From: Naegleria gruberi
Taxonomy: Eukaryota
Length of the DNA stretch: 64,000 nt
Direction: 5' to 3' (one strand)
Assembly: GCA_000004985.1 (NCBI GenBank)
Contig: GG738932.1
Below the pieces are notes generated by a model. It did no database searches, was not told where the DNA came from, and saw only the letters and a program-made list of their open reading frames with translations. Both the position numbers and the translations under genes were made by a program. How positions within the stretch are numbered: position 1 is the first letter of the stretch; every line of letters begins with the position of its first letter. Below are positions 12,967 through 64,000 of this stretch, piece after piece.

Positions 12967-13039
12967 CTGGCGTAGCTCAGTCGGTAGAGCGTTGGTCTAA
13001 TAAGCCATTGGTCGCCGGTTCGATCCCGTCCGTCAGCAG
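12967..13039 (+). tRNA. tRNA-Ile (anticodon AAU), copy 1
   Basis: GCTGGCG-TA-GCTC-AGTCGGTA-GAGC... anticodon loop CTAATAA ...GGTTCGATCC...CGTCAGC-A. Perfect acceptor and D stems. Anticodon stem has a U27-U43 mismatch and the T stem a C50-U64 mismatch. Identical to the copy at 42744..42816. Confidence 0.6.
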
Positions 13040-29296: not shown

Positions 29297-31528
29297 TTAC
29301 AAAATTGAAATATCCTCAAAGGAGCTTTCAGTCTTAACTTCATTTTGAGGGGAGATGACTACTGCAGATTCGTTTCTGATCAAGTCAATTTCACTCTTTC
29401 CAAACATCATTTGCTTTTCAGCTAATTTTCTATAGACACCATCTTCCTTCTTGATTAATTCGTGGTGAGTTCCTGATTCTTTCAATTCTCCCTTAACGAG
29501 TACATAAATGGTATCACAGTTTTGAATAGTACTCAATCTGTGAGCAATACAGATGGAGGTTCTTCCCTTCATGAGATTGTCAAGAGCTGCTTGAACGAGA
29601 CCTTCACTTTCAGTGTCGAGGGCTGAGGTGGCTTCGTCCAAAAGGAGGACTTGTGGATCTTGGAGAATGGCTCTTGCAATGGCAACACGTTGTTTTTGAC
29701 CACCTGATAAGGAAACACCCTTTTCACCCAGTTTAGTTTCATAACCATCTGGTAACTCCATAATAAAGGTATGACAATTGGCAGCTTTGGCAGCGTGTTC
29801 AATTTGTTCTTGAGAGACATTTTCAGCACCAACAGCATAGGCAATATTTTCTCTAATTGAAGTGGCAAACAATACAGGTTCTATAATTTTCAAATTAATT
29901 ATTAGAAATGAAACATTTTTAAACATACCTTGAGTGACAATACCAATATTTCTATGGAGCCATTGAGGATCAATTTCCTTAATATTATATCCATCAATTA
30001 TAATTTCACCTTCTTGTGGATCATAGAAACGTTCCAATAGACCAACAATGGTTGACTTTCCTGATCCTGATGGACCAACCAAAGCAACAGAAGTTCCTGG
30101 CTTGATATCAATTGAGAAATCAGACAAGACAACTGCATTTGGACGGGATGGGTAAATAAACTTGACATTCTTAACTTGAATGGAACCTTTCAACTTTTCT
30201 TCTGGAGCTTTTCCTCCTGCAAATGGAATTGCTGGACTTCTCTTTAAAACTTTGAGAATGGTTCTTTGAGACATTTGAGCTTTGGAAAATTCTGGAATTT
30301 GAGTACCAGCTTGAGAAAGACCAATAACACCAAATAGCATCATACCGAAAACTTTCATCATTTGACCAACTGTTATGGTATTTTCTGCAACCAAGCCACC
30401 TCCATACTATATTATCATTCCACAATAATTATTCCATTACATGACGATTGTAAAATATTTAAAACGATATGATGAATTAATACTACTTACCCAGAAGGCT
30501 AAGGCAATAGTTCCCCAGAGAATGAATGATACTGAGGCAAAAGTAGTTCCTTGCAAGATGGCTTTGAACAAGCCATAAGTACTAATATTCTTTAAATCTT
30601 TGGCAAATCTATCTTGTTCCTTTTGTTCACAACCCATTGATTTAACAGTTCTAAAACTTGAAACAACTTCAGTTGCAATCGATGCAGAATGTTCCGTAGC
30701 TCCATTTGTCTTTTTAGTTAAATATTCAACAACCTTAGACAAGACACCAACACCAAACACCAACAATGGAGAGGTTGAAATCATGCCAAGGGACATTTGC
30801 CAAGATGAAACAAAGGCAAGGACAATACCAATAATGAATTGGGCAGTGTTTTGTAAAAGGAGAGCCAATTTGTTAGAGTAGACTTCTTGAATTTTGGACA
30901 CGTCTTCACTCAATGCAACTGTCAATGCACCAGTCTTCTTAATATCAAAGAAACCCATCTCTTGAGTTGTCAATGCATTGAAATAGGCCTTTCTCAAAGC
31001 AACACCAATTCTTTCACTTGCCAAATTTAAAAAGAATTGAGAGAGCAAACTGGCCACAGCAGATCCTGCAGCAATAATTGCAAACTTGATAGCAATATCT
31101 GAAACACTTGCTTTCATAGAGTCAACAGTTGGAACGACACCATTCTTTGGCTGGAAAACATCCACCAAATCACCCATGACAAATTGAAAACACAATGGAA
31201 TGACACCATTACCCAAACTACCAATTGCTCCAATCACTACCAGCAACCAATTCCATCCAAAAATCTTGAAAATGATCATGTTATCCTTTCCAGTAATATT
31301 CGGCTCTTGTTCATCTTTGATTTCATCAACATTTGATTTCTCATCAGCCTTCTTCTTTTTGAATCGTTTGAAGGGATTTCTACTTGGTCGGGTTGCTGTT
31401 TCTTGAGGAGATTTTGTGTTCTGTTCATCAACAACTAGATGTGTTGTAGAGGTGGAATTTACTTGCTCCTTATCGAGAGAAGTAGCAGCATTAGAAGCTC
31501 CTCCCTTAGTATCTTCCTTTTTAGTCAT
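29297..31528 (-). CDS. ABC transporter, ABCB-type half transporter (TMD-NBD), 3 exons
   Basis: Exons are 31528..30491, 30384..29919 and 29870..29297. Intron 1 is 30385..30490 (GTAAGT...TTGCAG). Intron 2 is 29871..29918 (GTATGT...TTATAG) and lies in frame inside an ORF. Six-TM region. Walker A GPSGSGKST, Q-loop IGIVTQ/EPVLFATSIRENI split by intron 2, ABC signature LSGGQKQRVAIARAIL, Walker B LLLDEATSALD and H-loop IAHRLSTI. Confidence 0.8.
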
Positions 31529-36299: not shown

Positions 36300-38450
36300 A
36301 TGATTAGTCAAGTTTCGGCTGTTACGTCTGTACCATTCGAACAGAAGAGTAAAATACCAACACCTAAATACAATTATGTTAATATCATTCTAGACGAAAC
36401 AATTCAATCAGATTTATTAATCAAAAAGTTAAAATACCAAACCACAGAATTACAGCTCTTTCTAATACATTATCCTATTCTCGATTGGTTTCCTCTACAA
36501 ATGATAGGAACAAACACCAAACCTGGCCTTGATCGTTCCCAATTCACAGCCATTATCAAACATAGAATTGAACAGAACCACCAACTTATATCCAACATTA
36601 TTGGTTTGTGTGATTGTGACGACAAGTACAATTCATTCACTTCCATCCTGAAAATGCCAGATTTTAATGTGGATTGTAATTTGGAAGAGTTTGAAGAGCA
36701 AGCTAGAAAGCAACGTGTTAAAATGTTCTTGGCAGGGTTGTTGGAAGATAGGGATATTGCTTGGATAGCACTTGGTAGTAATTTTAAGTTTAGGCATATT
36801 TCGGATAGATTTAAGGAAGATTATCAAGTTGTTTTACAAGCTGTAAAATATGATACTAAAGCTTTTGAATTGGTTTCTGATAGATTTAAAGATGATGAGA
36901 GAATAGTTTTCGAAGCTGTTAGAAACTGTGGCAGCAATCTCAAATTTGCATCTGAAAGATTGAAAGACAATAACCAGATTATTCTAAAAGCCATCAAGAA
37001 GAATACATCAGCAATTATGTATGCCTCAAAGAGATTCAAAGATTACTTTGGCGAATTACTTTCTGATAGTGAGCTACTCCAATTAGAAAGATTTGAAAAA
37101 GATTCGTCTGATTTATTCTTCAACGAAGGGTTTGACAATGAACTGCTCATGTTAGAATTTGTCAAGTTAAATACAAGGTCTCTCAGAAAGGCATCCGATC
37201 GATTGAGGGATAATCAAACAATTGTGTTGGAAGCTATCAGGAGAAATGCCATGTCGTTGTGTTATGCATCTGACAGATTGAGAGATACTGAGATGGTTGT
37301 GATGGAAGCAGTTACACAAGAACCTCAAATGATGAAGTATGCTTCCAATAGATTGAAAGATAATAAGCAGTTTGTGTTGAAGATCATGAAATCATTGGGA
37401 TACTCGTATGATCTTTCTTTGGTTCAGTATTTATCGAAACTATTGCAAGATGATGAGCAAATTATTATAGAAGAAATCAAGAGAGACCAATCACCACTCT
37501 TTTTTGCATCTGAAAGGTTGCAAGACAATGAAGAAATTGTAATGAAAGCAGTCAACCAAAATGGAATGTCACTTTATTGTGCTTCCGAGAGATTGAAGGA
37601 TAATGAAAAGATTGTTTTGGAAGCGGTTCGAAATACTAGTGAAGCCCTTACTTATGCATCCAATAGATTGAAAGATAGTGAACTAGTTCTGATGGCAGCC
37701 ATTTGTCATGGTCGTTTGTGCAAGGCTCTTTCGTATGCTTCTGAAAGATTGCAAGATAACGAATTGATTGTTTTGGAATCTGTCAAGAAGAATGGGTCTA
37801 TGCTTGGATATGCATCTGATCGATTGAAATATCATGAACAAATTGTTTTGGAAGCAATTAAACAGGAACGATCATCAATAGAAAATATCACTTCTGCAAG
37901 ATTGAAAGATACTGAAACGATTATATTGGAATTGGTTAAGGATTCTACCATGAAACATGTACATAATCTGGAAATTGATGAATATGAGTTTCATTCCTCA
38001 GGCAGTGAAGTACGTTCTGATTTATTTAATGAATATTGTTCTGAAAGATTGAAAAACGATTCACAATTCATGTTAAAAGTATTGGCAAGCAAGTGGAGAG
38101 GTGGAATCGCACATGGACTTTCAGATAACAAGCAATTTATGCTTGAGGCAATTAAGCTCAATTGTTGGGCAATTGATTCAGCTTCCGAACAATTAAGAGA
38201 CGATGAAGAGGTTGTAAAGGCAGCTATTTCTCAAAATGGTAAAACTCTTCAATATGTTTCTGATAGATTGAAGAATGACATAACTATAGTCTCAAGTGCA
38301 GTGAAATCCTCAGTTGCCTCCTTAAAGTACATTGGTGAAAAGTTCAGAAATGTTGAATTTATTTGTTATTGCTTGGAGAATCAATTGATTTCTTCCAAAC
38401 CTTCAAATGTTGTTAAGGAAATACCATTCTTTGGAAATTTACATTTCTAA
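36300..38450 (+). CDS. DUF4116-like tandem-repeat protein (716 aa)
   Basis: About 14 copies of a 34-37 aa repeat ASxRLKDNxxIVLEAVKxNGxxLxYAS (ASERLKDNNQIILKAIKKNTSAIMYAS; ASDRLRDNQTIVLEAIRRNAMSLCYAS; ASERLQDNEEIVMKAVNQNGMSLYCAS and others). I recall this pattern as Pfam DUF4116 but cannot verify it here. Confidence 0.6.
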   Translation: MISQVSAVTSVPFEQKSKIPTPKYNYVNIILDETIQSDLLIKKLKYQTTELQLFLIHYPILDWFPLQMIGTNTKPGLDRSQFTAIIKHRIEQNHQLISNIIGLCDCDDKYNSFTSILKMPDFNVDCNLEEFEEQARKQRVKMFLAGLLEDRDIAWIALGSNFKFRHISDRFKEDYQVVLQAVKYDTKAFELVSDRFKDDERIVFEAVRNCGSNLKFASERLKDNNQIILKAIKKNTSAIMYASKRFKDYFGELLSDSELLQLERFEKDSSDLFFNEGFDNELLMLEFVKLNTRSLRKASDRLRDNQTIVLEAIRRNAMSLCYASDRLRDTEMVVMEAVTQEPQMMKYASNRLKDNKQFVLKIMKSLGYSYDLSLVQYLSKLLQDDEQIIIEEIKRDQSPLFFASERLQDNEEIVMKAVNQNGMSLYCASERLKDNEKIVLEAVRNTSEALTYASNRLKDSELVLMAAICHGRLCKALSYASERLQDNELIVLESVKKNGSMLGYASDRLKYHEQIVLEAIKQERSSIENITSARLKDTETIILELVKDSTMKHVHNLEIDEYEFHSSGSEVRSDLFNEYCSERLKNDSQFMLKVLASKWRGGIAHGLSDNKQFMLEAIKLNCWAIDSASEQLRDDEEVVKAAISQNGKTLQYVSDRLKNDITIVSSAVKSSVASLKYIGEKFRNVEFICYCLENQLISSKPSNVVKEIPFFGNLHF

Positions 38451-42743: not shown

Positions 42744-42816
42744 TGCTGACGGACGGGATCGAACCGGCGACCAATGGCTTATTAGACCAACGCTCTACCG
42801 ACTGAGCTACGCCAGC
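42744..42816 (-). tRNA. tRNA-Ile (anticodon AAU), copy 2, inverted relative to copy 1
   Basis: Exact reverse complement of 12967..13039. About 8 nt of 5' flank (ACATGAAG) and about 11 nt of 3' flank (CAGCAGATAATTTT) are also identical. Confidence 0.6.
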
Positions 42817-43032: not shown

Positions 43033-45192
43033 ATGCCTAACCTTGAGACTCTGAAGGAGACAGCAAGATCGGAGCTTTGCGATATTCTTGATTCGGTTTG
43101 TTATCATCACATTTATTATAATAACACAAGCAATCGAACAATATTTGTTTATCAATCATCTCATCTTCAATTAAATAATATATTATTATTAATTAATTCA
43201 TCAACATTAACAACAAAATAATAGATAAACGGAGACAAGATTCTTGTCCTTGATGAACAATTAATTGGACCTCTTGGATTAGTTGCCCCTCTGGCACTTT
43301 TAAAAGAACTTGGAGTTAAAAAACTATTTAAATTGAATGATAGAACATTTGATACCAATTTTGCAAATATTGTCTATATTGTGAGACCAAAGATGCACTT
43401 GATGAAGTGGGTTGCTAATCAAGTATCCTACTGGGTCAAACAAAAAGAAGATTTAGATCGAATGATGTCGGAAAAGCTGAAGGAAAAGAAGAACACAAAA
43501 AACAAAAAGCAACAACCTGAAGAAACCAATGAAGAAACATATACACCACCAACCAATTTCCACCTCTATTTATTACCTAAAACATCATTAATTTGTGTTG
43601 ATATCTTGAAGGATTTGGGTGTTTATCCACATTTAAGAATTTCCGAATATCCTTTGGATTTAATTGTCTTTGATAATTATTTAATGTCTTTGGAACTTCC
43701 TTCATCATTCAAGGAATGCGAATTGGATGGTGATTTTTCATCACTGTATTATGTAGCACGATCTATTATGAAGTTACAATCCTATTTTGGTTTGATACCA
43801 AATGTTAAATTTATTGGATCGGGTGCAACACATGTCTCTGAAATGATCATGAGAATGAGAAAGGAAGTTGGTTCACAAGCTTTTGCTTCTGTTCCAGAAA
43901 TTAACACATTAATTTTGATTGATAGAAATGTAGATTTAATTACTCCAATGTTAAATCAATTTACTTATGAAGGAATGATTGATGAACTTTTGGGAGGTAT
44001 TACAAATACCTTGTTTACAACTCAACGTGTACCTGAAGCTGCTACTATTGCTAAAAAGATTGCCCTCAATTCTTCTGATAATGTTTTTAATCGTTTGAGA
44101 CATCTCAATCACAATAGAGCTGGTATTGCAATCAATGAAATGGCTATTGAATTTAAATCCAGAGAAGATAAGGCAAGAGAAATCAAAACATCAGATTCTA
44201 AAGTTTCCATTGAAAAGATCAAGGAAGTTACTAAAATGTTACCACAAATTCAAGAAGACAAAAAGTATTTGGAACTTCGTAAGTTTTAAATTTCATGCAA
44301 TTCGTTACTAACACACATCCAAGACACCAAAATGATGCTTGAAATTAGATCAATTATTGGAAAGGTTCCTTTCAGAAGATTAATTCAAACACAGAAGAAT
44401 GTTCTTGATGGTGAGGATGAAAAGGAAATTATCGAATATATTGAAGAAACAATTGACAAGCAATTACCACTTACCAACGTTCTGCGTGTCATTTGTCTCT
44501 ATTCACTAATTAATGGAGGTATTAAGAATAAGGTTTTTGAAAAATTGAGAAGAGAAATTATACAAAGTTATGGACTTCAAGCATTGCCAACTCTCAACAA
44601 TTTGGAAAAGATTGGCATGCTCAGAAAGCAAGACTCCAAGTCTGTCAGTAATTGGAATTTACTGAAAAAGACATTTAATCTTGTAGATGAAGCTGCAATG
44701 GAAAGAACCAACGAGGAAGATGGTCAATATGATCCTCACTTGGTTTACAATGTCTATTGTCCAATAACTGTTGCTCTTGTCGAACATGCCATGACTGAAG
44801 AAAAGGGATGGAGAAGAGTTGAACCTGTTTTGAGTAAGCTTGCTCCAGGCCTTTATGGAGAATTATCTCAAACAGGTTCCCAAGATACTCAACTCGGAAA
44901 GAAGGTTGTCTTGGTTTACTTTATTGGAGGTGTTACTTTTGCTGAAATCAGTGCCATTACCTACTTGAATGAAAGAAGTAACGATTGTGAATACATTATA
45001 GCAACAACCAAGCTCACTAATGGATCCACATTTTTGGAAAATCTTGTTGAGGAAATTCCTGAAGATAGACAATCATTCAAAAAGAAAGCAAGCAGCGATT
45101 CCTATGCCCTTTTCTACGAAGAGCCACCAAAGGAAGGTGCTGATGCTTCATCATCTTCTGGAACAGCCAAAAACGGTCAACAAGATGTGTAA
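43033..45192 (+). CDS. Sec1/Munc18-family protein, Vps33-like, 3 exons; apparent frameshift in exon 2
   Basis: Exon 1 is 43033..43095 (MPNLETLKETARSELCDILDS). Intron 1 is 43096..43223 (GTTTGT...AATAATAG). Exon 2 is 43224..44278. Intron 2 is 44279..44333 (GTAAGT, branch TACTAAC, ...CCAAG). Exon 3 is 44334..45192. Exon 2 matches Vps33 (GDKILVLDEQLIGPLGLVAPLALLKELGVKK / LFKLNDRTFDTNFANIVYIVRPKMHLMKW; LNQFTYEGMIDELLG). The two halves are in different frames across an A7 run at 43317..43323. Confidence 0.7.
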
Positions 45193-45638: not shown

Positions 45639-48600
45639 ATGAAACAACAGCTACACGTTAATGGCCGCTTGCTGATTATTTCAGTTGTGCTGGCATTATT
45701 TCTAGTAATGACAGGTTGTGTTGCAGATATTGTGCAAGTGACACCTCAGAATCCACTGCTTGATATGATTAGTTGGAATGATAAGGATGAAATATGGTTT
45801 GCCCAATCGTGTCCTCTCACTGGATCCAACAGTCGGTAAGTTTCGAATATATTTTCTTTCCTGACTAATGGAAATAGTCTTGGAATTGAAATGAGAAATG
45901 GCATCCTTGCTGCATTCCATGAAATCAACTCTATTGGGGGTGTTTGGGGCTCAAAGAAACTCAAATTGCTCTCACTCGATGATAATTATGATCCAGTGAG
46001 CACTTTACAAAATACAAATTACTTTCTTTACAATATTACTCCACCAAATACTTCACTGAATTATGCAAATGTGTTTTCAAGTGGTAAATATGAAGATAGA
46101 AATGTCAATGATGTGAAAGTTTTTGGATTGTTAGGATATGTCGGCACGCCAACTGTCCAAGCAGTTTATTCTGATGTTGTGGCAAAGAATGTACCACTTG
46201 TAGCTTCTTTTACAGGAGTTGGTTGGTTGAGATATTCTCCATTCTATTCAAATGTCATTAATCTTAGAGCTTCCTATGATGATGAGACAGCTGCCATGAT
46301 TGACTATCTCATTAACGAAAAACTAATTAGAAGAATCTCTGTATTCTACCAAAATGACAGTTTTGGACTTGCTGGATTGAGCGGAGTCCAACGTTCCCTA
46401 GTCAACTATCTCAATATCCCTATTCGTTCCACATCTTACTATACAAGAGGAACACTAAATGTGGAAAATGCATTTCAGGAAATTGGAGCGGGAAAACCAG
46501 CTGCAATTATTTGCATTGGAACTTTTGCTCCCATTGCCAAGTTTATCAAGATGGTAAAAGATTTGGCCTTCAATTCAACTGCCAATCAATACGGTTATGA
46601 GAAACCGAGCGAAATTATTTTCATGACTTTGAGTTTCGTCAGCTCAGGAGCTCTCATTGAAAGATTAAACTCCTTCAGTTTACCTTCGAATAACTATGGC
46701 AATTCGTATTACATTGACAATGTAGTCATCACACAAGTCGTCCCCAGCCCTTTCAATCTCTCAATTCCAATAGTGAGATCCTATCAGAATGCAAGAAGAT
46801 CCTATCTACTAGCCAACGATCCATCCTCTTACAATTCCTTCACTCCCTCCTTTATAGAATTGGAAGGATACATGGCGGGAAGATTGGTTTTTTCGATATT
46901 TCAGAAAATGGTTGGAAATTTAACGAGATCCAACTTTATTGCAACGAATTATTTTGGAGGGAATAGGTTGGGAACTGATATTGGGGATTCGTCATCGACT
47001 GGTGACAGTTCAGGAGGTGTTTCACTTGTGGATGGGATTAGGGTAGGTCCGTATCGTTGGTGTGAAAGTGTCAATGTCATGGATTTGAATTTACCATATG
47101 CGGATAAGATTTCATTGAATGTTTCGGCACTTTCGAATACTACTTGTTCTAATTTTAATTGTAATCAAGGTTTGAAAGTTGTTTACAAAAGTTCAGCTCA
47201 AATTGAAAACTCTAAAATTTCATTTTCTATTTTAGGGAATAGTTTTTCATGGTATGATTACAAGGGAGGTATTTATTGCATTTCAGATCCTTCACTTGTT
47301 AAGAAACCTCTCATTTTCGGTCAATCAATCTATTCGAATAAGGACTATACTGAAGAACTAATGCTGAGAAAAGGAATTTTAATGGCCTTTACCATATATA
47401 ACCAAGGATTGTCAAGTTCTGATTCCAAATTAGAACTTTTAACACAATATCACTCAAATAAGGATGAATTAATTTCGAATACAAAGGAATTCATTGAAAC
47501 TCATGATGCACTTGCTCTGGTTGGCTATTCGACAGATCACTTTTCGTTGGTAGAAAGTAGTGGAAAGATCAATATTGCAACTAATCCACAATTTGCAAAC
47601 ATTTCCTTGATTGGAGGTGCTTCAACTATTAATTCAATGAAATTAAGAAATCCATTCACAAGGAATATCATTCACGCACATTCGTCCATTTTCGAACAAT
47701 TGGCAACGATTGTGGAATATTCAATGAATCAAGAAGCATCTTCAAGGTTTTCAATTATTTACAGTAAGAGAAATGAAGATTCATTTGCAGCTTTTGGATT
47801 ACTCAATCAAATATTGACTGCTTTGGGTTTAGTTTTAGATTCTTCTGCATGTATTGATGGTTCGAATAGTTATTCATATGCCAGTATAGATTCAATTGTT
47901 GATAGTTTGAGATATAATGGTTCTAATCCTCAAGTTGTTATATTTGCATTCCCATCAAATGTCGATGTAGTTTCGTCCTTGATTGGAGCTTTCCAAACTA
48001 CTTATCAGAATTCACCAAAATTTGGTCGAAACTTGGATATTGTTTTGATGAATTCCTTCTTTTCCCTTAATGCAGAATACGAAATGAAAGATTGGCTCGC
48101 TCAAAATTACAAGAGTTTCTTCAAAGTTTCGTTTGTTTCTCATTTAGATTCGGTTTATTCATCCTCACAACTTTCCATCGTCAAATTCATTCAAACCATG
48201 AAGAATTTCTTCCCAAACGATTATTCCAACTCAACTACCCTCTATCACAACAAAGTTTTGGAAGGATTTTATATTGGAAACTTGATTACCTCTATTCTAA
48301 TCAATATTGATTCAGGTTTGACTTCAAAGGAAGTATTGCAAACTATTTATGATGTCAAGAGTTTCATTTCTCAGCAAACGACATATGGTCCCTTCAGTGA
48401 AGATGGTTGCAATGTTGGTATTCGTCAAAATTATGTTTTCACATTCGTTTCGAATAGTTTCTCCAAAGTTTATACGAAAAGTTATGATTCAGGTTGTGGA
48501 TTATTGGCAAGCTCTGTTGAGACAGCCATCAAATCATACATTAACACGCCATTACTATTTGGATATCTAGCTCCCTATAGAAAAATTGGAAATTCTCAAA

Positions 48601-51332
48601 TTGAAAGACAATTAGACTTGTTGAGCCAGGTTTCAGATTTGGACACTTCTGGTCATACTCAATTTTCTAAGGGTCTATCCACCTATTTTAAAAAAATTAC
48701 TCAGAAATTCAATAATGGATATTCCTCTAAAAATATTCAACTTGTTATTGAATATTATAGTACTGATGAGGAGAAATTCAATCTTCCAAATAAGGTAAAT
48801 TCCTTGATTGACAAAAATAGAGTTTTTGCAATTATTGGATCAGAATTTATTTTTACTTCATCTGATATCAGTAGAGAATTTGATTCTATCAGATCCACCC
48901 TCGAAACAAAACAAATTCCTTGGATTAACAGCTATTCAGGTTCCATGGAATTGAGAAAACCGTACACTCCTTATTTTGTCAATGTTGGACCATCTGTCGT
49001 TGATCAAGCCATTTCATTCTTTAATTATTTCAAACAGAATGGAACTGTCAACTTGGCTCTTGTTTATGAAAATGATCCATTTTATACTAATATGGCAATT
49101 AGTGAAATTGTTGAATATTGTAGAATTGAATCCATTCCAATAAGTTTCACTCAGGGAGTTTATAATACATCGATAGCTGATCAAATTATTTCATTGTTTT
49201 CGAATGCAAGAATTGAGAAGGATGTGGCAATTATGGTTTTGGCAAGAGATTCGAATAGTGCTTCGATTATTAAGCATTCAATTCTTGCTGCTCAGAAATT
49301 GAACATTGATAAGAAACTCTATTTTGGTATTTTGATTGAAAATAGTGGAAGGATATTCGAACAATCTCTTGTTTCCACTTCTGACCTTTCATATTGGATT
49401 AGTTCAATTTCAGGTTCTTCCCTTTCAACTTTGTCCCAATCTGTTTTAAATGGAGTGAAAGAAGGTAAGCTAGTAATGGCTAGCTCAATGGATTCTCCAT
49501 TCCATGACTTTTCTGGTTCAGATAGCGCCTCTTTCGTCCAATTATTCAAAACCGAAACTATTTCATACTTTGATTCCAATATTAATCATTTAACATTTGA
49601 AGGTTACTCGCTTGGCCACTTTATCGATATTCTCATCACCTCCATTGAACAAGCAAAGAGTATTTCAGGTCAAACCTCAAACATTACCCCTTCAGATTTA
49701 TTGAACTCCATTTATAGTAATACCGTCTTTGATTTGAACATGAAAAAAGTTGGCCCAGTTGGATATGCCTGCTCCAATACCACAACAGCAAGTACAACTT
49801 GTGATTCTTCCACTTCCTTGGGCTGTTCCTGTAATGAAGGAGCTAAAAAAGTTGTCTTATCAACTCTAACAAGTCAACCAACTGTGAATTCTTCCGCTCT
49901 CTTCAAATATTCCAATACTATCTCAACCAATACCTTTGGAACATGTGGTTTGGTTGCTGTTGTTCCTTCTCTGTCTGTTGTTGCCATTGTCATGATTGTC
50001 CTTTCAGGTATTGCCTTCCTCCTTCTCATAACAATCATTCCAATACTTTCGTATAGATATTATGTAGCAAGAAATGCCATCAAACACGCTCCTAAATCAA
50101 AGAATGGTAAATTAGCTTGTTGCTTTACCGATATCCAAAACTCGACTGTCTTGTGGCAATCCAATGAGAAAGCCATGAGAGAAGCTTTGATCATTCACAA
50201 CCAAATTATGAGAAAGAATCTCGATCTATGTAATGGATTTGAAGTCAAGACACAGGGTGATTCATTCTTTGTGGTTTTCAAGAATCCAACTGATGCCTTA
50301 GATTGGTGTGTCTCTGTCCAACATGATTTGTTGACAGCCAAGTGGCCATCTGATTTATTGGGATTGTGGGATTGTAGACCGGAGTGGGATAATGCAACTA
50401 AGGAAATAATTTGGTCAGGAGTGAGAGTTAGAATGGGACTTCATTATGGAGCTGCGGAATATGTCTTTGATAAGGTTGTGAAAAGACCGGACTATTTCGG
50501 AACTTGTGTAAATACCTCCGCAAGAGTTGAGAGTGTGGCTATTGGTGGACAAATATTGGTTTCTGAGGATTTCTTATTGGAAACATGGAAAACAAACAAG
50601 TGCCGATTGTATTCCTTTATCAAATTCCTTCAGGGAAATAACAACTCGTACGTGAGTGAAATCATGACTGGATTGACCTTACAGGAGGAACAGAATGATA
50701 AGGACATTGTCTCAGTTGGAGGATCCAGTCATAAGAGTTCTGAATTATCGAGAAATTCCATCTCATCCAGGAATTCCTCAGTTAGCTCAGCACAAGCTTA
50801 CGATCTTTCAGATCCAAATCAAGTTACAAAGAGGAAGCGAACAAGACATGCACGTGGTTGGAGATATTTAGCTGAAGACATGGGAGAATTCACATTGAAA
50901 GGTTTGGAAGGAACAACAAGACTTTTCCAAATCAAGTCAACCATCATGGCCAAGAGAAATTATCCAGCATTGAAGAGTGTGACTGTAGCTTCATCATCTA
51001 AACCATTGTTGCTATCTCAACAAAGTGCTGCAGTTTTTGGTTTGAATGGTCAATCATCTAGCAATAGCGTGACTCAGGATAGTAAGGCATTTAGAACACT
51101 CATGACAAGAACGAATACTCAATCTTTTAGAACAGTTCCAGATCAACAGATTTATCAGAGTTATCAGGAAGATGGTATGGAGAAGGGACCACAATCAATT
51201 CCACCACAGTCTACTGTTGCAAATCCAGAAATTCCAATGGATTCAGATTTTGAAGTGTCCAGATTTAAAAAGAATAGAATTGTACCAGTAATTACAACAA
51301 CAAGTGAGAATGAGACAAATGAGGAGGAATAA
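45639..51332 (+). CDS. receptor-type class III nucleotidyl (likely adenylyl) cyclase with periplasmic-binding-protein/ANF-receptor-like ectodomain, 2 exons
   Basis: Exon 1 is 45639..45835 with signal peptide MKQQLHVNGRLLIISVVLALFLVMTGCVA. The intron is 45836..45877 (GTAAGT, CTGACTAAT, AAATAG). Exon 2 is 45878..51332. The ectodomain of about 1,400 aa has at least two PBP-type modules (LGIEMRNGILAAFHEIN...; ELMLRKGILMAFTIYNQ...; VFAIIGSEFIFTSS). One TM segment (VAVVPSLSVVAIVMIVLSGIAFLLLITIIPIL). Cyclase homology domain (CCFTDIQNSTVLW...FEVKTQGDSFFVVF...RVRMGLHYGAAE...GTCVNTSARVESVAIGGQILVSE). Ser-rich C-terminal tail. No kinase-homology domain. Confidence 0.8.
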
Positions 51333-51829: not shown

Positions 51830-54800
51830 TTAGAAGGCAGCAGAAACCAATACAATAATCACCATCAAGAGCATATTCATTCCAATAGAACAAGCACCAG
51901 AAACAATAGAACTTCTTGGAATGACAGTATTATTACTTGCTGAAGGTGAAATTGGAGTAGTTGAAGTGCCTGGTTCTGGAACAGTATCTTGTCCTGATCT
52001 TACTTCATTGGTTACATCAAAGAATAGAGAGGCCATCTTCAATGGATCAACATCTGGATTAGCAGAAACACCACAAGATGAAACAGAATCCCAGGTCTTA
52101 ATTTCACTTGAAGTGATATATCTGGATGTCTCTTCAGTGCCTTGATCTCCAACGAAACGAATATTATCGAGGATCATTTCTCTGTATTGTCCATTGTTGT
52201 TTAAGGAGAAGGCAAATCTACTGAATGGTTGAACTCCTTGGAATCCCAAATCAGTGAGAGGATATCTAACTCTGGTAACACGAGTGTCATCAATCTTGTA
52301 GTGTTGAATGTAGGTTGCATTGGTTGTAATACCTCTACCAATGGTAATGAAAGCCTTGGATGTAGTATTGTACCAAGCAAAGGCCAAGTTCAAATCAATG
52401 GATCCAGAGCTATTGGTTCCCTTAATGAAGAATTCAAAGTATTTGAAAATACTGGTATCCACATTGACAACTGAACCTCTGTAAAGTTGGAAACCTCCCT
52501 TCTTGAGTCCAAAGTAATAAGAAGAATTACCACAAATTGGATTGAATGGATAGGTAATGTTGGCAACGTAGTAATCAGGACTAGCTCCAGCATATGGACC
52601 ATTGGTGAATCCAGTTGACTTGAAAGTAGCTCCTTCATCATACAATGTAATAACTTCAGAAGCATTCTTGACAGTACATGGAGAAGTGATTGGAACTGCT
52701 GGTGGCAAATTACATTTACCACTACAGTACAATTGAGCTCTCAAGTGACCTGTTGGATTTTCAATACTGGAAACCTTTACGAAAATTCTTCCCTTCAACA
52801 AGTCAACCCATTCTCCATAAGACAATTGCAAACCAAATCTACTTTGAGAATATGGAGATGGAACATAGTTATAGTGATCATTCTTTCAACAGAACCAGGA
52901 GCACCGACACCAACTTCAACCAAAGTAGCCCTATTATTCATATTGTGATGGAGAACAATATCCAATAATCTGTCATTATAATTGAGGAAGGCAAAAACTG
53001 AACCAACAGCTTGGGAAGAACCAGAAGCCAATGGAGAAACAGCAGCTTGTTGACACATTTCCAAACGACCTACAAATCTATCTTCCTTCATGTAAACTCT
53101 ATAAGTTTCTCTTGGATTTGATGGAAGACTTTGGGTGGCTCCACAATAATCATTTGGACAAGTGGCTGTAACATTGATTGCAGCTGAACTACCATAATTA
53201 CCATAATCAACAAAGCCATACCATTCCTTCTTACCACTCTTGGAGTTGGTATTCTTCAACTTGATATAAAAGTGACCAGTTGTGGCATTGAAATAATAAC
53301 ATTGTGTTGGGAAGTTAATGACATCTTCCAGAGAGTCACATAAATTGAGAGTTTTTGGATCGTTACTACTTGTTACACTGAATGTAGTACCAAGTGGATA
53401 TTGAGCAACAAAAACAGCCCAATCACCAGCACCAGATGATTGCATATTCAAATTCATTGGATTTGGAGGTGGAAGATCCCAGTTAAACTTGATAGAATAG
53501 AAACCACGAGCTGGAATGTTTGCCTGCATGGCAAAGTCGCCTCCACTGGATTGGACACCTGACACTGTACCTTGAATACCTCTCAAGAGATCAGTGAGTA
53601 TTAATCTCGGAACTCTCTTTGAATTATCCTTAAAATCAGGATGTGAAACACCATTTGGATCGATAATTACTGAAGAAGAAATGTTATAATTAGTTACTCT
53701 TAATTGGAAGTATGATTCTCCCATCAATGGACAAACTGAAGCATTATTCCAGTCATATCTTGTGATACAACCTTCAAAGTTTTGAATTGGGTCAGTACCA
53801 CTAATCCAAGCACCAGCTTCTACACCAGTGATTGAACCATCGATATCCATGAGAGCAGCACCCTTGTGATTTTCATAAGTGACAGTATCCAAGAATACTC
53901 TTTGGGGCGAGTTTTCAAACTTTAAATCACAATATCTATTTCTAGTATGGAGTCTGAAGAAGTTATCAAGGACTGACAAACAACCAGCTCTCTTATACTT
54001 GTCAGTGACAAAGTTTCTGAAAGTGACATTTCTCAATAATTCAGCACCACCATTATCATAAGTTTCATAACCCTTAATAACAGTAGTGGTTGAGTAGTAA
54101 GCATTTGGTCTTGTTCTATTACCAATATCAACAGATGGTCTCAAAGTATAATCACCAACATTCTCAGATTCAGCAATCATGATAGAATCAGTAATGTATG
54201 AAGTACCAGGTGGAGAGTTCATTTGTCTCATATTATCAGTCAAGTACAAGTTTTTGAAAACAATATTACCACAACGAGCCCAAATACCATAACCTCTCAT
54301 TTTGTAAGCAGTAAAGTTATCAATTAGTGCTTCAATAGCTGGATAATAACCTGCCAATTCAGTTGTACCATCAGATTTTTCCATATCGTCAATGAATAGA
54401 CCATTTTGACCACTGTGAGCTACATTTCCTGAAAATGGCTTTGGAGGAGCAGTTCTAGGATTGATAGAACCTGGAGCATACAGGGAGGCACTTGCACCTG
54501 TTGGGAATGTTGGCATTCTAAAGTAAAATTTAAACATTAACTATGAACAAATTGTAATAACTTACGTAAACCAAAAAGAATGCTTTCCACCCATTGCATG
54601 GTTATCAACGAATGTATTGTTTGGATTAGTAATCCAAAAAACAGCAACATCACTGTCAGATGGAATTAAACGATATGCCAAATCATAAACTGGCTTTGGA
54701 CGAATTCCCAAATTATGTTTGAAAACATTTCCGACTTCAGAACCATCTTCCAAAAAGTAACAGTGACCATTGGCATTGAAGCAGACATTATCTTGAAGCA

Positions 54801-55857
54801 AGAAATAATTGGTATCGTGAACAACGTAACATCTTTGGAAAGAGTCATGAACTGAACATCCCTTGATATAATATTGAGTACCCAAAGCAGTACCTTGAGC
54901 AGTATTTTCCAAAAGGTGAAGATGGAATGAGTATCTTCCCATCAAACCATATTGACCAAACTTTCTAATTTCAATACCTTCAACTTGGAATTGAGTAACC
55001 AAACGAACCATGAAATGACCACCGAATTGAGAAGCATCAGATGAATTGTCACCTTGGAAGACAATTCTTCTAGACAATAAACCAACTTCTGGCTTGATCT
55101 TGTTACCATCGCTGTAGTGAGTGTAATTGAGTGGAGCATCCAAGACAATAGTCTTTCCGCCATCTAAAACTTGAGTAATAATACGCTCTTCATTTTGATC
55201 TGGGAATTTAACACCTCTAGCCCAACCAATTAATGAAGAAGTTACTTTGGTATAGTCAAGTAATTCACCATAATCTGAGGTAGCAATAACAATAGAATCA
55301 CCAACTCTCCAAGAAACACTTTCGCTCAACTTGATTTGATTAGAACCCTTGACAGCAGTAACAGCCAGATCAGTAAATGTTGGATAATCAACTTGACCAA
55401 AGATTTGTACCTTTGATCCAGAGAGGAAACCAATACCCTTTGAGCCCATGTTAACGTTATCAAATGGATCTGTTCCAATATCATTCTCAGTAGTACGAGC
55501 GCCATAGAATGTCAACACAATTTTGCTAGTAATTGGACATGTGGCACTTCCCATGATCCAGCTAGCGCCTGATTCCACTCTAATAAAATCAACATTCAAA
55601 GTCAAGTTGGTATTATCGAAAATTAGAGAACCACCATTCAAAACGGTTATGGAACGAAGCTTGTTTGGTGGAGATTTGTCAACCTTGACAGCTGTGCTAA
55701 TAGTAATTTGACTATCAGCAACAGAGAATCCAGTAACACTGGAAAACAATGTTAAACCTTGTGCATCTTGTGGACAATTGGTTTGACAATTTACCAAACC
55801 AACTACCAACAGGATAAAGAATACTAAACCTGTCAGTACTCGCTGCTTGTTGGACAT
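51830..55857 (-). CDS. large secreted/membrane-anchored G8-domain beta-helix protein (CEMIP/TMEM2/fibrocystin-like), at least 3 exons
   Basis: Exon A is 55857..54557, with signal peptide MSNKQRVLTGLVFFILLVVGLVNCQ and a G8-like region (VLNGGSLIF...ASWIMGS...LTFYG). Intron 1 is 54509..54556 (GTAAGT...TTTAG). Exon B runs from 54508 to about 52891. The intron or frameshift at about 52785..52890 is unresolved. Exon C runs from about 52841/52785 to 51830 and ends in a hydrophobic tail (GMNMLLMVIIVLVSAAF). Motifs YSFHLHLL, GHFMV and repeated beta-helix-like segments. Confidence 0.55.
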
Positions 55858-57950: not shown

Positions 57951-59087
57951 TCATTTAAAAGTGTAAGAATCAGCTCTGGAAATCTCAGAAACAGTATAGC
58001 TAGTACGATCAAAGTATGGATCCATCACTGAGAAGGTCTTGCTTACCGGATCGTAACCTGTGGCCAAAACGAAATGCTCTGATTTCTTTCCAGGTGGTTT
58101 TATCAGTTTCAGAATGACCAACTTTCCTTCACATAAATTTCTTGTGGCCACCACAAGAATATCAGTTGTTCTTCCATAATATTTAACTCCAAACTTGGAA
58201 GTAATTGCTGCCCAAACGTACAAGTTCTTGTTTTGGAAACCACCATTGGTCTTCAACCATTCATTGAATTCATAGGGATTCATTTTGGTTTTTCCAATTC
58301 CATTCAATCCTGAAATAATGGATGTGATCAAACAACCTGCCTTACAAATAGTTTCACTAGAGGTTCCCAATTTGAAAGATCCCCAAGTAGAATCACATTG
58401 TTTCAATAACGGGAATTGAGATGGAATATATCCTGGTGAGCAAATATTTGGTGGAATAATTGGTGATGGTTCTGGAATAGGAGTTGGTTTTGGAGGAGGT
58501 GGAATAGGAATAATTGGAGATGGCTCTGGTTTCGGTGGAATAGGAGATGGATCAGGTGAGGGTGGAATAGGAGAGGGTTGTGGCAAAGGTGGAATAGGTG
58601 ATGGTTTTGGTTTTGGCACAATAATGACCTCACGTCTTCTTCTTCTTCCTCTTGGTATCTCCAATTCCAAATTAATATTCACACTTCCACCAGGATTGTT
58701 AGTTGTAGCAGAGGAAGATGCTGAGGAAGCAGCTCTACTTGCCTGTTGAAGAACAATAGTTTGTGGAGTTTGAGGAATTGGCACTGGAACATTCACAACT
58801 AGTTCTCTACCTGGGAAGTAACATTTACGTGAAGTTTTCTTCTTCTTTTTCCCAATAACCTTGATGATAATTTCCTTATCGTTCTTTGTTTTTTTCTTGA
58901 TAGTTTGTTTTCTTCTTCTTCTTGATGAACTTTTAAATGACCTGGCAGAGGTCAATGTAATGATCTGAACATTACTGTCTGATCTTTTTGATGATTTCGC
59001 AGCAGTAATAGCAACTACACCAAACAAACAAACCAACAAGATTCCAATAAGAAAGTTAGTTGGTTTCAGAGCAGCTGATTTGTACAT
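57951..59087 (-). CDS. secreted protein: signal anchor, polybasic/dibasic sites, Pro-rich (PSPIPP)n linker and C-terminal Peptidase_C39-like (papain-fold) domain
   Basis: N-terminus MYKSAALKPTNFLIGILLVCLFGVVAITA. SSRRRRKQ and PRGRRRRREV are candidate Kex2/furin-type sites. PKPKPSPIPPLPQPSPIPPSPDPSPIPPKPEPSPIIP linker. C-terminal domain has a TWGSFKLGTSSETICKAGCLITSIISGLNG (Cys) ... HFVLATGYD (His) ... VMDP pattern like bacterial C39-like peptidases (Q....GC.PTS..M.L...G / HAVVLTGYD...DP). Confidence 0.5.
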   Translation of the reverse strand: MYKSAALKPTNFLIGILLVCLFGVVAITAAKSSKRSDSNVQIITLTSARSFKSSSRRRRKQTIKKKTKNDKEIIIKVIGKKKKKTSRKCYFPGRELVVNVPVPIPQTPQTIVLQQASRAASSASSSATTNNPGGSVNINLELEIPRGRRRRREVIIVPKPKPSPIPPLPQPSPIPPSPDPSPIPPKPEPSPIIPIPPPPKPTPIPEPSPIIPPNICSPGYIPSQFPLLKQCDSTWGSFKLGTSSETICKAGCLITSIISGLNGIGKTKMNPYEFNEWLKTNGGFQNKNLYVWAAITSKFGVKYYGRTTDILVVATRNLCEGKLVILKLIKPPGKKSEHFVLATGYDPVSKTFSVMDPYFDRTSYTVSEISRADSYTFK

Positions 59088-59201: not shown

Positions 59202-61715
59202 TTATTTCTCATTTGTTTCCTGTTTCAATAAAGGAACAGATTTCTGTTCAAAATATAAACTTCTGTGCACTTGTACAAGATACTGAGATGGAATGGAAGT
59301 ATCAATTATTAAAGATTCTCCACTCCTATGGATAATCAATTCTTCTCCAAAGTTCTTTTTACACTTGATAGTGAACTTGTTGATAGCTCTTGATTTGGTA
59401 CTCAATCCTCTCTTACAAATCTTTTTGAGTTTTTCAATCTTCTGTAAATAGCCAGGGGACCCTTCCACATTATCGAATAAATCAAAAGCTGTTTTACCTT
59501 GACTATTTCTAACAATGTCGAATTTCAAACCCCTTTTAATGAGTGCACTGCAAGTTAGAAAATCATCATGAATAAAGGTTTGTGCCCAATGCATGTAAGC
59601 TCTGACAATAAAGTGAGATATATCATCTCCATCTACACAGCCAAAACAATTAACATTTCGTAACTGTTGGAGTGGAGATCTTTCTAATGAAAAGTGACAA
59701 CGATTTCCGTCATAGTGGAAGAAGAGTGAGACTAATTGAGGTTGACCCTCCACATAATCAAATGCAAGAGAATTGCACTCCTGAATACTGTAATTATATA
59801 ATCTATCAATTATTTGAAACATTATTCTATACATTCCACAATCGTCCGAATATCCAACAAAATTAAATTTAGGAAAATCTTCTATTGAAGTCAATTTGTC
59901 TAATAGACTGTAGTATCCTAGTGAGGTGGTTTGTATTGGCATATTTCCATTTCTATCTTTGCATAAAACAATTTCCCTTAAACTAATGTTTAAACTAGAA
60001 AGGAAACAATTTCCAAAATAATGCACCAAATGTTTCCCATTCATATCTCTATAATTGATATCATTGAACTCTTGGTAATCATAATGTTCTGGCATTCGAT
60101 TAATAGTTGCAAATAGAATTCGCATATCTATCAGTAATCCATCTAACAAGATTACTTTTGAATAAACTTCTCCACATACTTTCTTAAACGCTTCATAATT
60201 AAAAACTTTTGAGAAATTTCCTATTATCATTTTAGTGTAACGGCTGAACGCAACCTCTTTAGGTGTAATTCCATAATTATTTGGCTCCTCACTAAGGCGA
60301 TCTATTTCAGTATCTGATAATTTTGCCAGAAATGATATTTTCTTGTAAGTGGTCGCAGTTGAAAATAAATAATAACAATGTAAAATATTATTTCCAAAGT
60401 TATCTTTGGAACTGGGATCAAAATTGTTCGTAACATGATATCTCATCATACATGGATTAATTCCAAACACGTCTCTACTATTTGGGTCCAGTTTTATCTT
60501 GCTAAATTGAAAACAATCCGAAACTAAACTAGCTGCTGATAATTGGTACTTTCCCAAATGTGACAGATCTATATTATATTCACTGCAGAAAGATATTATT
60601 TCCTCCTTATCAATAGTATTATTTAGAAATTCCTTGGTAATGTTTCTTTCAACCTTAATCTTCACAAATGGATATTTTAGAATAATATTCAAACATTGAA
60701 TAGAGTAAATAGGAATTTTGAAAATTCTGAATGTTGGATATTTCGCATGTATCTGTTGCAATAAATTCATGACCTGCTCCAAGTTTTCCTCTTTTTCTAA
60801 ATAATTCCAATTTGTAAATTCGATCTGCAAAATAAATGTAAAATATTCAATGTCAAGTTTGAAATTTTCAATTAGATAATTTGCATCTTCAAATTGCAAA
60901 CAAATAATACAGTAAAACACAAGGTTTTCTACTTTTTGAAAAGTTTTTGGGATAATATTGGCAAATTCTGTAGTTGGTATGATTTCATACTCCTGTGTGA
61001 ACCTATAGCTACGATAGCAATTACCACTCCTGTACAATCTAGGTTGTAAAACTCCATAAACAGGTAGAGTATAAACAGATACATCACTACTTTCAGGCTT
61101 AAAATCTGAATTGAAATTCAAAAAGTAATGCTTCACACTCGGCATTAATTTCATAAAATCTACTCCAAAATTTCTTACACTCGAGACATTGAAATAATTC
61201 TTTCCCATTACTGAATGAAACGAAACATATTCCACCTGACGAAGAGGTTGCTTTCCATGACAAATCTTTTTCAATTTCCACATGAATTTGGAAAACACTT
61301 GCATCCACGATTCCCTCTCATATTGTCGCAACAAATCTACAATTTTAACACATGGATGCCTCTTGAGATGTTGCACATAAACCTCATCAAGAAAATAGTT
61401 ACGTTTAATCTTGGGCGTATCAAAGATTGTAATATTCAAACTTTTCGGAAGGAAAGTCTTGATGGATTTTAAAATTGATTTACAAACTAGAAAGAGACCA
61501 ATACTTTCATGGCAAGGAGGTTTCTCCTCAAAAGCAATGAAATCATCAGAGCATAAGATTTGATCAAATTCTTCAAGAGTTTCGGGAAAGTTGATTTTTG
61601 GTACAAAGAGAAGTGGATGAGCACAAATATCACGAATGTAATCGAGGTAGGAGAAAATTTCATGATGAATTTCGGAGGGAAGATTTGAGAGTGAGGGTTT
61701 GCCTTCTTCATGCAT
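59202..61715 (-). CDS. F-box domain protein (837 aa)
   Basis: N-terminal LSNLPSEIHHEIFSYLDYIRDI fits the F-box consensus LPxEIxxxIFxYL. Long uninterrupted ORF. Confidence 0.55.
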   Translation of the reverse strand: MHEEGKPSLSNLPSEIHHEIFSYLDYIRDICAHPLLFVPKINFPETLEEFDQILCSDDFIAFEEKPPCHESIGLFLVCKSILKSIKTFLPKSLNITIFDTPKIKRNYFLDEVYVQHLKRHPCVKIVDLLRQYERESWMQVFSKFMWKLKKICHGKQPLRQVEYVSFHSVMGKNYFNVSSVRNFGVDFMKLMPSVKHYFLNFNSDFKPESSDVSVYTLPVYGVLQPRLYRSGNCYRSYRFTQEYEIIPTTEFANIIPKTFQKVENLVFYCIICLQFEDANYLIENFKLDIEYFTFILQIEFTNWNYLEKEENLEQVMNLLQQIHAKYPTFRIFKIPIYSIQCLNIILKYPFVKIKVERNITKEFLNNTIDKEEIISFCSEYNIDLSHLGKYQLSAASLVSDCFQFSKIKLDPNSRDVFGINPCMMRYHVTNNFDPSSKDNFGNNILHCYYLFSTATTYKKISFLAKLSDTEIDRLSEEPNNYGITPKEVAFSRYTKMIIGNFSKVFNYEAFKKVCGEVYSKVILLDGLLIDMRILFATINRMPEHYDYQEFNDINYRDMNGKHLVHYFGNCFLSSLNISLREIVLCKDRNGNMPIQTTSLGYYSLLDKLTSIEDFPKFNFVGYSDDCGMYRIMFQIIDRLYNYSIQECNSLAFDYVEGQPQLVSLFFHYDGNRCHFSLERSPLQQLRNVNCFGCVDGDDISHFIVRAYMHWAQTFIHDDFLTCSALIKRGLKFDIVRNSQGKTAFDLFDNVEGSPGYLQKIEKLKKICKRGLSTKSRAINKFTIKCKKNFGEELIIHRSGESLIIDTSIPSQYLVQVHRSLYFEQKSVPLLKQETNEK

Positions 61716-62797: not shown

Positions 62798-62999
62798 TTT
62801 TTAATTTGTGCTTTATCAATTCTGGCATTTACAATTGTTTACAAGATTCCCTGTTGAATATTGATATAACTTTACAGTTTACCTGGTTTTTTCCGGTTTA
62901 CACTTGAATTTGGTCGAGACACTTTAACTTTTATATAAGATGGATACCATAAGATAGAACCTTAGATAGTCGTTGTGTATTTTATGATACATATGTATT

Positions 63000-63083
63000 C
63001 CGGTGATAGCTCAGCTGGTAGAGCATGGTACTGTAGTTGTAACAGTTCTCCCGTGGTCGGCGGTTCGAGTCCGTCTCGTCGGA
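63000..63083 (+). tRNA. tRNA-Tyr (GUA) with short (about 11 nt) intron after the anticodon loop
   Basis: CCGGTGA-TA-GCTC-AGCTGGTA-GAGC-A-TGGTA-CTGTAG... intron ...TTGTAACAGTT... TCCCG-TGGTC-GGCGG-TTCGAGT-CCGTC-TCGTCGG-A. The 5' half is near-identical to canonical eukaryotic tRNA-Tyr. The intron segment AACAG can pair with the anticodon region CTGTT, as is typical. Anticodon-stem pairing is imperfect. Confidence 0.65.
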
Positions 63084-64000
63084 TTATTTTGGCTATTTTG
63101 GTCAAATTGAGTTAAAAATATTAAGGATGGTTCAACACATATTTCAATCCAATTGCTGAAAATTATCCAACTTCCATCCTTATTTTTGTAAACTTTATTT
63201 AATGATAAGAAAAGGATGAAGAAGTTTATCATTATCTATGGCAATTCCTTTTATTGATTCTCCGAGAAGGAATATTCCAAAACAACAGCATATCTCAATT
63301 TCATGTATTTTTCAGATTCGAATCTTTGTATACAAAGATTTCATTCCAAATCACCGGTGATGAGATTTTTTCGAACCACTACAGTTTTATTGTAATCACA
63401 GTAGATCAAAACTGTAGATCAAGTTTAGGTGATTGTATAATTTGATCAGAGTCAATTTAGGAAAACTTGTAATATGAATAAGAAGAAATTAAACGAATGG
63501 TGGCGAAACATACTTTTAAGAACCTGTAAGGCCTCCATATGGTTAGATCATCTAACTTGTAGATTTTGCTTCCTGTTGTTTCGAATCGTCCAATGTAATT
63601 CGTTCAGAATAGTCTAAAACAAATTCTAAATTGGTAATATTCCACATCCGAAGATTTTACATAGAATGGAACAATATCACAACAATCAACTCATCTTGAA
63701 GTAATTTACCCTTTTCGATCAATCGTTACATTTTCGAATAGTGCCATTGCTGTTTCTAATAGTTTAATTTCATGTACTTCTATGTATTTTTTAATCGGTC
63801 AAGGAATACATTTCACGATCATCCTCAATCTCCAAATTTCATCAATTCTGTACATTGTCCTTTCCAACAAAGTTTCGAATGGCATTATCGAACGAAAGAA
63901 AAAATTTTGAAATCTCCATTGAAATCCTGAAAGAGAAACTTTCTACATTCGAAAAGTTGCCACCTCACACTTCTATCCTCAAATCATGTATTCAAAATTG

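Follow-up and report, generated by a model that had tools for sequence, protein, structure and literature searches.

Surveys of phage lysins count Peptidase_C39_2 (Pfam PF13529) among the catalytic domains of endolysins (PMC8223927; 10.64898/2026.04.25.720813), and the N5 domain of the mycobacteriophage lysin LysA matches 3erv (PMC3314691), a putative C39-like peptidase of Bacillus anthracis that represents the family. PeiR and its relatives lyse cells by cutting an isopeptide bond of the wall (PMC4592898). Among eukaryotes, the NlpC/P60 peptidases and TvGH25 of Trichomonas vaginalis follow the same concept of an exported wall hydrolase, in the former case a papain-like peptidase of bacterial origin directed against stem peptides (10.64898/2026.07.07.735988), and both the GH25 transfers and the 'domesticated amidase effectors' are likewise laterally acquired peptidoglycan hydrolases of eukaryotes. 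The subject of the present analysis is a single-exon gene of Naegleria gruberi, located in a 64,000-nucleotide stretch of contig GG738932.1 (hereafter the window; feature positions in Table 1). With moderate confidence, its product is read here as an exported Peptidase_C39_2 cysteine peptidase derived from a phage or bacterial wall hydrolase that entered bacterivorous protists long ago, and its likeliest function, judged by analogy, would be cleavage of peptidoglycan peptides on bacterial prey.

The Naegleria protein differs from each of the described systems. Its identity to 3erv is only 16%, and relative to the PF13529 members examined it is eukaryotic, predicted to be exported and unique in its polybasic and proline-rich extension. 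Phage endolysins and virion lysins (LysA N5, phi29 gp13-like proteins and the lytic domains of tape-measure proteins) share its domain family or fold, whereas the Naegleria gene sits in a eukaryotic chromosome, encodes a putative eukaryote-type N-terminal export signal and has no tblastn match in cultured phage genomes. The PeiR/PeiW/PeiP enzymes of methanogen viruses (MEROPS C71), whose substrate is archaeal pseudomurein, are 16% identical to the protein and match the family profile at E=0.1; sequence membership in that family was therefore rejected, and the likeness is one of fold only. The first-pass annotation of this locus had drawn an analogy to bacteriocin-processing peptidases, which does not hold. 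In comparison with the C39 domains of PCAT and ComA (PF03412), the protein gives no match to that family at E up to 10, lacks fusion to an ATP-binding cassette (ABC) transporter, would act outside rather than inside the cytosol and has relatives with wall-hydrolase architectures and contexts. Its domain stands alone at the C-terminus behind a predicted export signal among unrelated neighbour genes, and the ABC half-transporter gene of the window (29297-31528) lies 27 kb off. A bacterial relative shares with PcsB, CwlO and RipC a signal peptide, a coiled coil (sub-threshold in the relative), a C-terminal hydrolase domain and a position behind ftsE-ftsX; the Naegleria protein has neither coiled coil nor FtsEX. 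Compared with the Trichomonas NlpC/P60 enzymes, the Naegleria family is C39_2, is spread over several protist lineages rather than one and has a predicted muralytic role; GH25, in turn, is fused to C39_2 in some of its relatives. In its mode of action the Naegleria protein probably resembles the stem-peptide hydrolases of phages and bacteria, as well as the Trichomonas NlpC/P60 enzymes.

Bacterivorous amoebae must breach peptidoglycan, but little has been catalogued of what they use to degrade walls besides lysozymes and pore-forming peptides. The gene is one of a group of C39_2 enzymes, exported and present in several protist lineages, that apparently derive from phage or bacterial lysins. 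If these are muralytic, the antibacterial genes known to have moved into eukaryotes (NlpC/P60, GH25, dae) would be joined by one more class of enzyme, and PF13529 would gain a testable substrate, without overturning current understanding. Database pipelines already tag the domain, and searches of the literature turned up no publication that treats this protein or the C39_2 enzymes of eukaryotes.

The C39_2 domain and its probable wall-hydrolase relatives

The C-terminal domain of about 165 residues, which contains ICKAGCLITSIISGLNG (247-263) and HFVLATGYD (338-346), matches PF13529 with E=1.1e-15 and 58.9 bits (cut-off 24) over residues 224-358, covering positions 2-143 of the 143 in the profile. 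Alignments of 73 and of 67 homologues show no variation at five residues (Gln230, Gly251, Cys252, His338 and Asp356). An AlphaFold2 model of the domain, built on the 73-sequence alignment, reached a mean pLDDT of 90.1 and a pTM of 0.86; in a model of the full-length protein Cys252 opens a helix (252-263), His338 opens a strand (338-346) and Asp356 follows an adjacent strand (351-355), a predicted layout that is papain-like within an alpha+beta fold of the papain type. The family profile matches 3erv with E=3e-5, aligning the GC, H and DP motifs, and the His and Asp motifs also align with PCAT1. Its score, the predicted catalytic residues and the predicted fold together place the protein in PF13529. 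Both the C39-like papain fold and the Cys/His pair suggested by the first-pass annotation are thus borne out, the former by the Pfam match and the confident model, with no unrelated fold assigned, and the latter by the invariance of C252 (the second Cys of ICKAGCL) and H338, which are joined by the equally invariant Asp356 and Gln230. No NlpC/P60 or CHAP match was found in the protein by Pfam, and phmmer with the domain returned no match among PDB sequences. Neither the domain nor two phage relatives could be assigned to a PHROGs family, NCBIfam gave nothing relevant, and by tblastn the domain occurs just once in the window.

An exhaustive phmmer search of 1.84 billion representative sequences returned 1131 proteins at E<=1e-3, 189 of them at E<=1e-10, and only the protein itself exceeded 48% identity. 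The nearest named relatives are heterolobosean at 44-47% identity, namely C9374_001515 of Naegleria lovaniensis (47%, annotated 'SH3b domain-containing') and ABK040_006473 of Willaertia magna (44%), with N. fowleri FDP41_007107 and a second N. gruberi protein as further heterolobosean members. The wider family includes the euglenid Entosiphon sulcatum, the choanoflagellate Salpingoeca kvevrii, a marine eukaryote metatranscriptome, and metagenomic members on contigs with fragmented, sparse genes of eukaryotic type (protein kinase, enkurin, MORN, FHA). Phage-borne relatives (P0005, P0082 and P0087) are 35-39% identical by BLASTP. The contigs that carry the more distant members are phage-like, and in two cases the surrounding genes are those for capsid, tail-terminator or tape-measure proteins. 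In a neighbour-joining tree (149 columns, 100 bootstraps, effectively unrooted), the eukaryote-type sequences split from those of phages and bacteria in 98 of 100 bootstraps. The gene falls in this clade with Naegleria, Willaertia, Entosiphon and Salpingoeca, and is a native eukaryotic gene of old origin. The earlier description of the domain as rare in eukaryotes was thus overstated, as the clade is sizeable and holds other Naegleria species, Willaertia, a euglenid and a choanoflagellate. Tandem arrangements also occur in the family. Sixteen of the 236 members with complete N-termini carry two C39_2 domains (e.g. P0096, P0119, P0125, P0128 and P0130), and in P0096 an acidic Ser/Pro/Glu linker joins the two copies. 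On a 56-kb metagenomic contig with sparse genes of eukaryotic type, including FHA and a PP1-like N-terminus (ENA ERZ746982 NODE_287; locus L008, 4561-9870), at least four 165-aa genes stand in tandem, three with Peptidase_C39_2 matches, which suggests local amplification of the enzyme in a protist.

The architectures and gene contexts of these relatives lend most support to one of the functions raised in the first-pass annotation, that of an exported enzyme directed against cell walls or prey. In heterolobosean and many metagenomic relatives the order is signal peptide, bacterial SH3 domain, short linker and C39_2. SH3_3 is combined with C39_2 in the Willaertia protein P0098 and in P0059, P0101, P0102 and P0090, and is present below threshold in N. 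lovaniensis P0095, and a GH25 lysozyme domain is fused to C39_2 in P0100 and P0078. On contig JAJYIE010000016.1 of a bacterial metagenome-assembled genome (MAG; locus L006, 1579-4468), prfB, ftsE and ftsX precede a gene (3233-4468) whose 411-aa product has a signal peptide and ends in a C39_2-like domain; its coiled coil of the PcsB type scores 25 bits, short of the cut-off of 27. Wall hydrolases of the PcsB/CwlO type occupy the position after ftsEX, and the MAG protein resembles such an enzyme under FtsEX control, with C39_2 standing in for CHAP or NlpC/P60. Structure comparison points in the same direction. The top viral matches (BFVD) are tape-measure proteins, morphogenesis hydrolases of the phi29 gp13 type, lysozymes and endolysins, and the best match overall is the wall-lytic endoisopeptidase PeiR.

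Naegleria is a bacterial feeder, so that an exported muralytic cysteine peptidase, active in the food vacuole or outside the cell, is the most economical reading. Its hydrophobic N-terminal helix would direct the protein into the secretory or endolysosomal pathway; export is inferred from this segment and from the short, signal-peptide-like N-termini that directly precede the domain in relatives. In food vacuoles or extracellularly, the predicted triad of Cys252, His338 and Asp356, with Gln230 contributing the oxyanion hole, would then cut a peptide or amide bond, by analogy with relatives in a stem or cross-link of peptidoglycan, and would aid Naegleria in killing and digesting its prey.

Several points weigh against this interpretation. 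For no PF13529 member did the literature searches bring up a biochemical determination of the bond that is cut, and peptidoglycan is assigned as substrate from domain fusions, gene neighbourhoods and fold similarity. This copy is without the SH3b or GH25 partner on which the case of its relatives rests, and a Pfam scan of residues 1-223 found no SH3b, LysM or other domain. An archaeal C39-like protein, in which Asn replaces Asp, is reported to be a weak glycosidase without peptidase activity (PMC13642728). In addition, the hydrophobic segment is 19 residues long and followed by a strongly basic flank, which leaves topology and cleavage uncertain. The protein also sits on a long branch and groups with the heteroloboseans in only 33 of 100 bootstraps, which leaves room for functional drift. 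The 'eukaryote-type' relatives come mostly from metagenomes, and that they are eukaryotic is deduced from only a few contigs.

The basic and proline-rich N-terminal extension

The only unusual part of the protein is its highly basic, proline-rich N-terminal extension. Hydropathy peaks at FLIGILLVCLFGVVAITAA (residues 12-30, Kyte-Doolittle mean 2.8), and residues 9-30 are helical in a full-length AlphaFold2 model; they may form a signal peptide, cleaved at a possible AITAA/KSS site, or a type II anchor. Residues 34-154 contain 15 Lys and 15 Arg, with a net charge of +23, and the basic runs RRRRK, KKKKK and RGRRRRR amount to three runs of five within 121 aa. The other open reading frames (ORFs) of the window hold about 13 [KR] runs of four or more in about 11,900 aa, none of them Arg-only, and the polybasic pattern of this gene stands above that local background. 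The following linker (residues 155-214) has 31 Pro in 60 aa, including three exact PSPIPP units. In the full-length model pLDDT is below 50 for residues 33-158 and reaches 73-80, without secondary structure, across the proline stretch, and the C-terminal domain is again modelled confidently. At the DNA level, the Arg and Lys runs are built from (AGA)n and (AAG/AAA)n trinucleotide tracts, as expected of low complexity generated by slippage. Beneath RRRRR, Tandem Repeats Finder detects a TCT repeat of period 3 with 6.3 copies (58635-58653), and a 27-nt period of 3.7 copies with 75% matches in the linker (58512-58612), where the GC content of third codon positions (GC3) falls to 0.10. All gene features listed in the first-pass annotation (hydrophobic N-terminus, polybasic sites, proline linker and Cys/His domain) are present in the translation.

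In 170 of the 236 family members whose N-terminus is complete, no more than 45 residues precede the domain, as in a plain signal peptide plus domain. A [KR] run of four or more upstream of the domain occurs in this protein only, and a linker with at least 30% Pro occurs besides it only in P0073. A search for homologues of residues 1-157 returned nothing; this negative is weak, since the same kind of search, word-indexed and with a single sequence, missed the identical database entry P0045 even when the domain was used, as did an exact-sequence look-up of the whole protein, and P0045 was recovered by a profile search. Judged from these comparisons, the extension is lineage-specific and repeat-generated, in the place where relatives carry SH3b. 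It may represent a pro-region cut by a convertase, a polycationic targeting module on a stiff spacer, or tolerated low complexity.

The first of these concerns maturation only and is compatible with a cell-wall function. A Kex2- or furin-like convertase of the late secretory pathway could cut after RRRRK and/or RGRRRRR and free the proline linker with the peptidase, perhaps together with cationic peptides. Motifs of the R-X-K/R-R type at residues 56-60 and 146-152, their position in a disordered and accessible segment (pLDDT <50) and the location of the last site just ahead of linker and domain all agree with this, and naegleriapore peptides are produced several per precursor in Naegleria (Herbst et al. 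2004, as cited in 10.64898/2026.07.07.735988). The P-domain of proprotein convertases has also been reported in Excavata (PMC2770060), an indirect hint. The site itself, however, is not conserved, as none of the 236 members but this protein shows an upstream [KR] run of four or more and heterolobosean homologues have no basic site at the junction of linker and domain, and the runs are microsatellite-like (AGA)n/(AAG)n tracts. Processing of the Kex2/furin type is thus possible on the strength of its motifs, though we hold it to be doubtful on balance.

About as tentative is the proposal that the basic and proline-rich extension is functionless, a slippage-generated spacer between signal sequence and enzyme. 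The trinucleotide and 27-nt tandem repeats that encode it, its uniqueness to this gene, its predicted disorder and, as a weak negative, the lack of returned homologues for residues 1-157 would fit such an origin. Against it, a stretch of 181 codons has stayed open in AT-rich DNA with native codons, and Pro-rich or Gly/Ser-rich linkers recur before the domain in relatives, for example P0073 and P0064. A role is also suggested by the net charge of +23 beside an enzyme whose probable target is the anionic cell wall.

Under the interpretation as a muralytic enzyme, the place of the relatives' SH3 domain would be taken by this disordered polycationic segment and a stiff proline-rich spacer. The polycationic module would most likely tether or target the enzyme to anionic bacterial surfaces; alternatively, it could be a pro-region removed at RRRRR. 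The extension would in the former case be a natural experiment in lysin targeting to bacterial surfaces. A wider and more speculative extrapolation, which we regard as rather improbable in its entirety, is that phagotrophic protists of several supergroups (Heterolobosea, Euglenida, choanoflagellates and uncultured marine and freshwater eukaryotes) share 'domesticated' C39_2 lysins of phage or bacterial descent, often fused to SH3 or GH25, as a core tool of bacterivory, and that in the N. gruberi copy SH3b was replaced by a polycationic, proline-rich module carrying the enzyme across or onto the Gram-negative outer membrane. If true, this replacement would be the natural counterpart of engineered lysins with polycationic tags.

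Alternative substrates and the origin of the gene

A different substrate class should also be considered. The enzyme could be a protease directed against proteins, either surface proteins of prey or host or the amoeba's own secreted precursors, in the manner of C39 leader peptidases, staphopains and papain-like toxins. Its fold neighbours include the C39 domains of PCAT1 and ComA, staphopains, CdiA-CT and a papain-like toxin, and its set of Gln, Cys, His and Asp is the same as that of C39 peptidases. Nevertheless, the missing PF03412 match and transporter fusion, the fusion of relatives to SH3b or GH25, the ties of relatives to ftsEX and phage virion modules and the wall-lytic isopeptidase as best fold match all speak against a protein substrate, which appears unlikely.

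With regard to origin, bacterial or phage ancestry of the domain is plausible, as the first-pass annotation had suggested with its proposal of horizontal acquisition, but any transfer must be old, since GC3 and codon use match those of the neighbouring genes. The gene has a GC content of 0.383, a GC3 of 0.275 and a synonymous codon score of -0.958, all within the ranges of 20 neighbouring ORFs (GC3 0.26-0.41, codon score -0.83 to -1.07). The direction of transfer is read from the bacterial partner domains and the wide prokaryotic and phage distribution of the family, the tree being effectively unrooted. Searches outside eukaryotes yielded little: tblastn against 50,697 phage records gave no match, and pattern scans confirmed one locus in 185,579 prokaryotic species genomes, at 30% identity, and one in IMG/VR, counts that are no measure of abundance because the scans demand exact motif matches. 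Although the domain family is widespread in bacteria and phages and automatic JGI annotation calls relatives bacteriocin exporter peptidase domains, a recent horizontal transfer or bacterial contamination of the assembly is rejected as highly improbable on codon use and genomic context, given the position of the gene between eukaryotic genes on a 195-kb N. gruberi contig, its nearest relatives in other heteroloboseans and the single prokaryotic locus and absent phage match just described.

Gene features and genomic neighbourhood

The coding sequence (CDS) is 100% identical over 378 aa to P0045, a 'predicted protein' of N. gruberi on the 195-kb contig, whose database entry precomputed annotation had already tagged with PF13529. 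Its features are given in Table 1. A 76-aa ORF within it (58403-58633, minus strand), rich in His, Leu and Gln, was rejected as a gene and is a by-product of the proline repeat in another frame.

Table 1 Features of the Naegleria gruberi Peptidase_C39_2 gene, in window coordinates.
Feature	Positions	Strand	Basis
Complete single-exon CDS, 378 aa + stop, ATG start	57951..59087	minus	ORF listing
N-terminal hydrophobic helix, residues 9-30, putative signal peptide or type II signal anchor	58998..59063	minus	Hydropathy and AlphaFold2
Disordered polybasic region, residues 31-154	58626..58997	minus	Composition; pLDDT <50 at residues 33-158
RRRRK, residues 56-60, codons (AGA)4 AAA	58908..58922	minus	DNA read-out and composition
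KKKKK, residues 80-84, codons AAA and AAG	58836..58850	minus	DNA read-out and composition
RGRRRRR, residues 146-152, directly upstream of the Pro-rich linker, candidate convertase site	58632..58652	minus	DNA read-out and composition
Pro-rich linker, residues 155-214, 52% Pro, 9-aa PSPIPPxPx repeat	58446..58625	minus	Tandem Repeats Finder and composition
Globular domain of predicted papain fold, residues 215-378	57954..58445	minus	
PF13529 match, residues 224-358	58014-58418	minus	Pfam
Gln230, putative oxyanion-hole residue in the [YF]xQxDxxW motif	58398..58400	minus	Invariant; role inferred from papain-like enzymes
Cys252, predicted nucleophile (G-C of AGCL), N-terminus of helix 252-263	58332..58334	minus	Invariant; aligns with GC of 3erv
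His338, predicted general base, start of strand 338-346	58074..58076	minus	Invariant; aligns with HCV His of 3erv and HFV His of PCAT1
Asp356, predicted third triad residue (DP motif)	58020..58022	minus	Invariant; aligns with DP of 3erv and PCAT1

The window is an ordinary stretch of eukaryotic chromosome. Its genes encode an NHL propeller protein, CEMIP/G8 domains, a receptor-type adenylate cyclase, a purple acid phosphatase, a DUF4116 repeat protein and an ankyrin protein, and it further holds the ABC half-transporter, a Sec1 gene and five tRNA genes. Directly upstream of the peptidase gene, an 837-aa ORF (59202-61715, minus strand) ends 114 bp ahead of the peptidase start codon, a gap that requires the promoter of the peptidase gene to be very short. 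This ORF has no Pfam match; its N-terminus (LPSEIHHEIFSYL) may be F-box-like.

Three genes are each divided between two neighbouring ORFs, as short introns would explain, namely ABC_membrane and ABC_tran at 29297-31528 (minus strand), the two Sec1 halves at 43333-45192 (plus strand) and the G8/CEMIP beta-helix and CEMIP_X parts at 52795-55857 (minus strand). An intron-free ORF of 1813 aa (45891-51332, plus strand), for which an exact-sequence look-up returned nothing, combines two domains of the periplasmic-binding-protein/ANF-receptor type with a class III cyclase domain, the make-up of an adenylate or guanylate cyclase of receptor type. A 716-aa protein at 36300-38450 (plus strand) consists of nine DUF4116 repeats (356.6 bits). 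Among the tRNA genes, tRNA-Ile(AAU) is present twice with equal Rfam scores (12966-13038, plus strand, and 42744-42816, minus strand), and the 86-nt length of tRNA-Tyr(GUA) at 62999-63084 (plus strand) suggests an intron.

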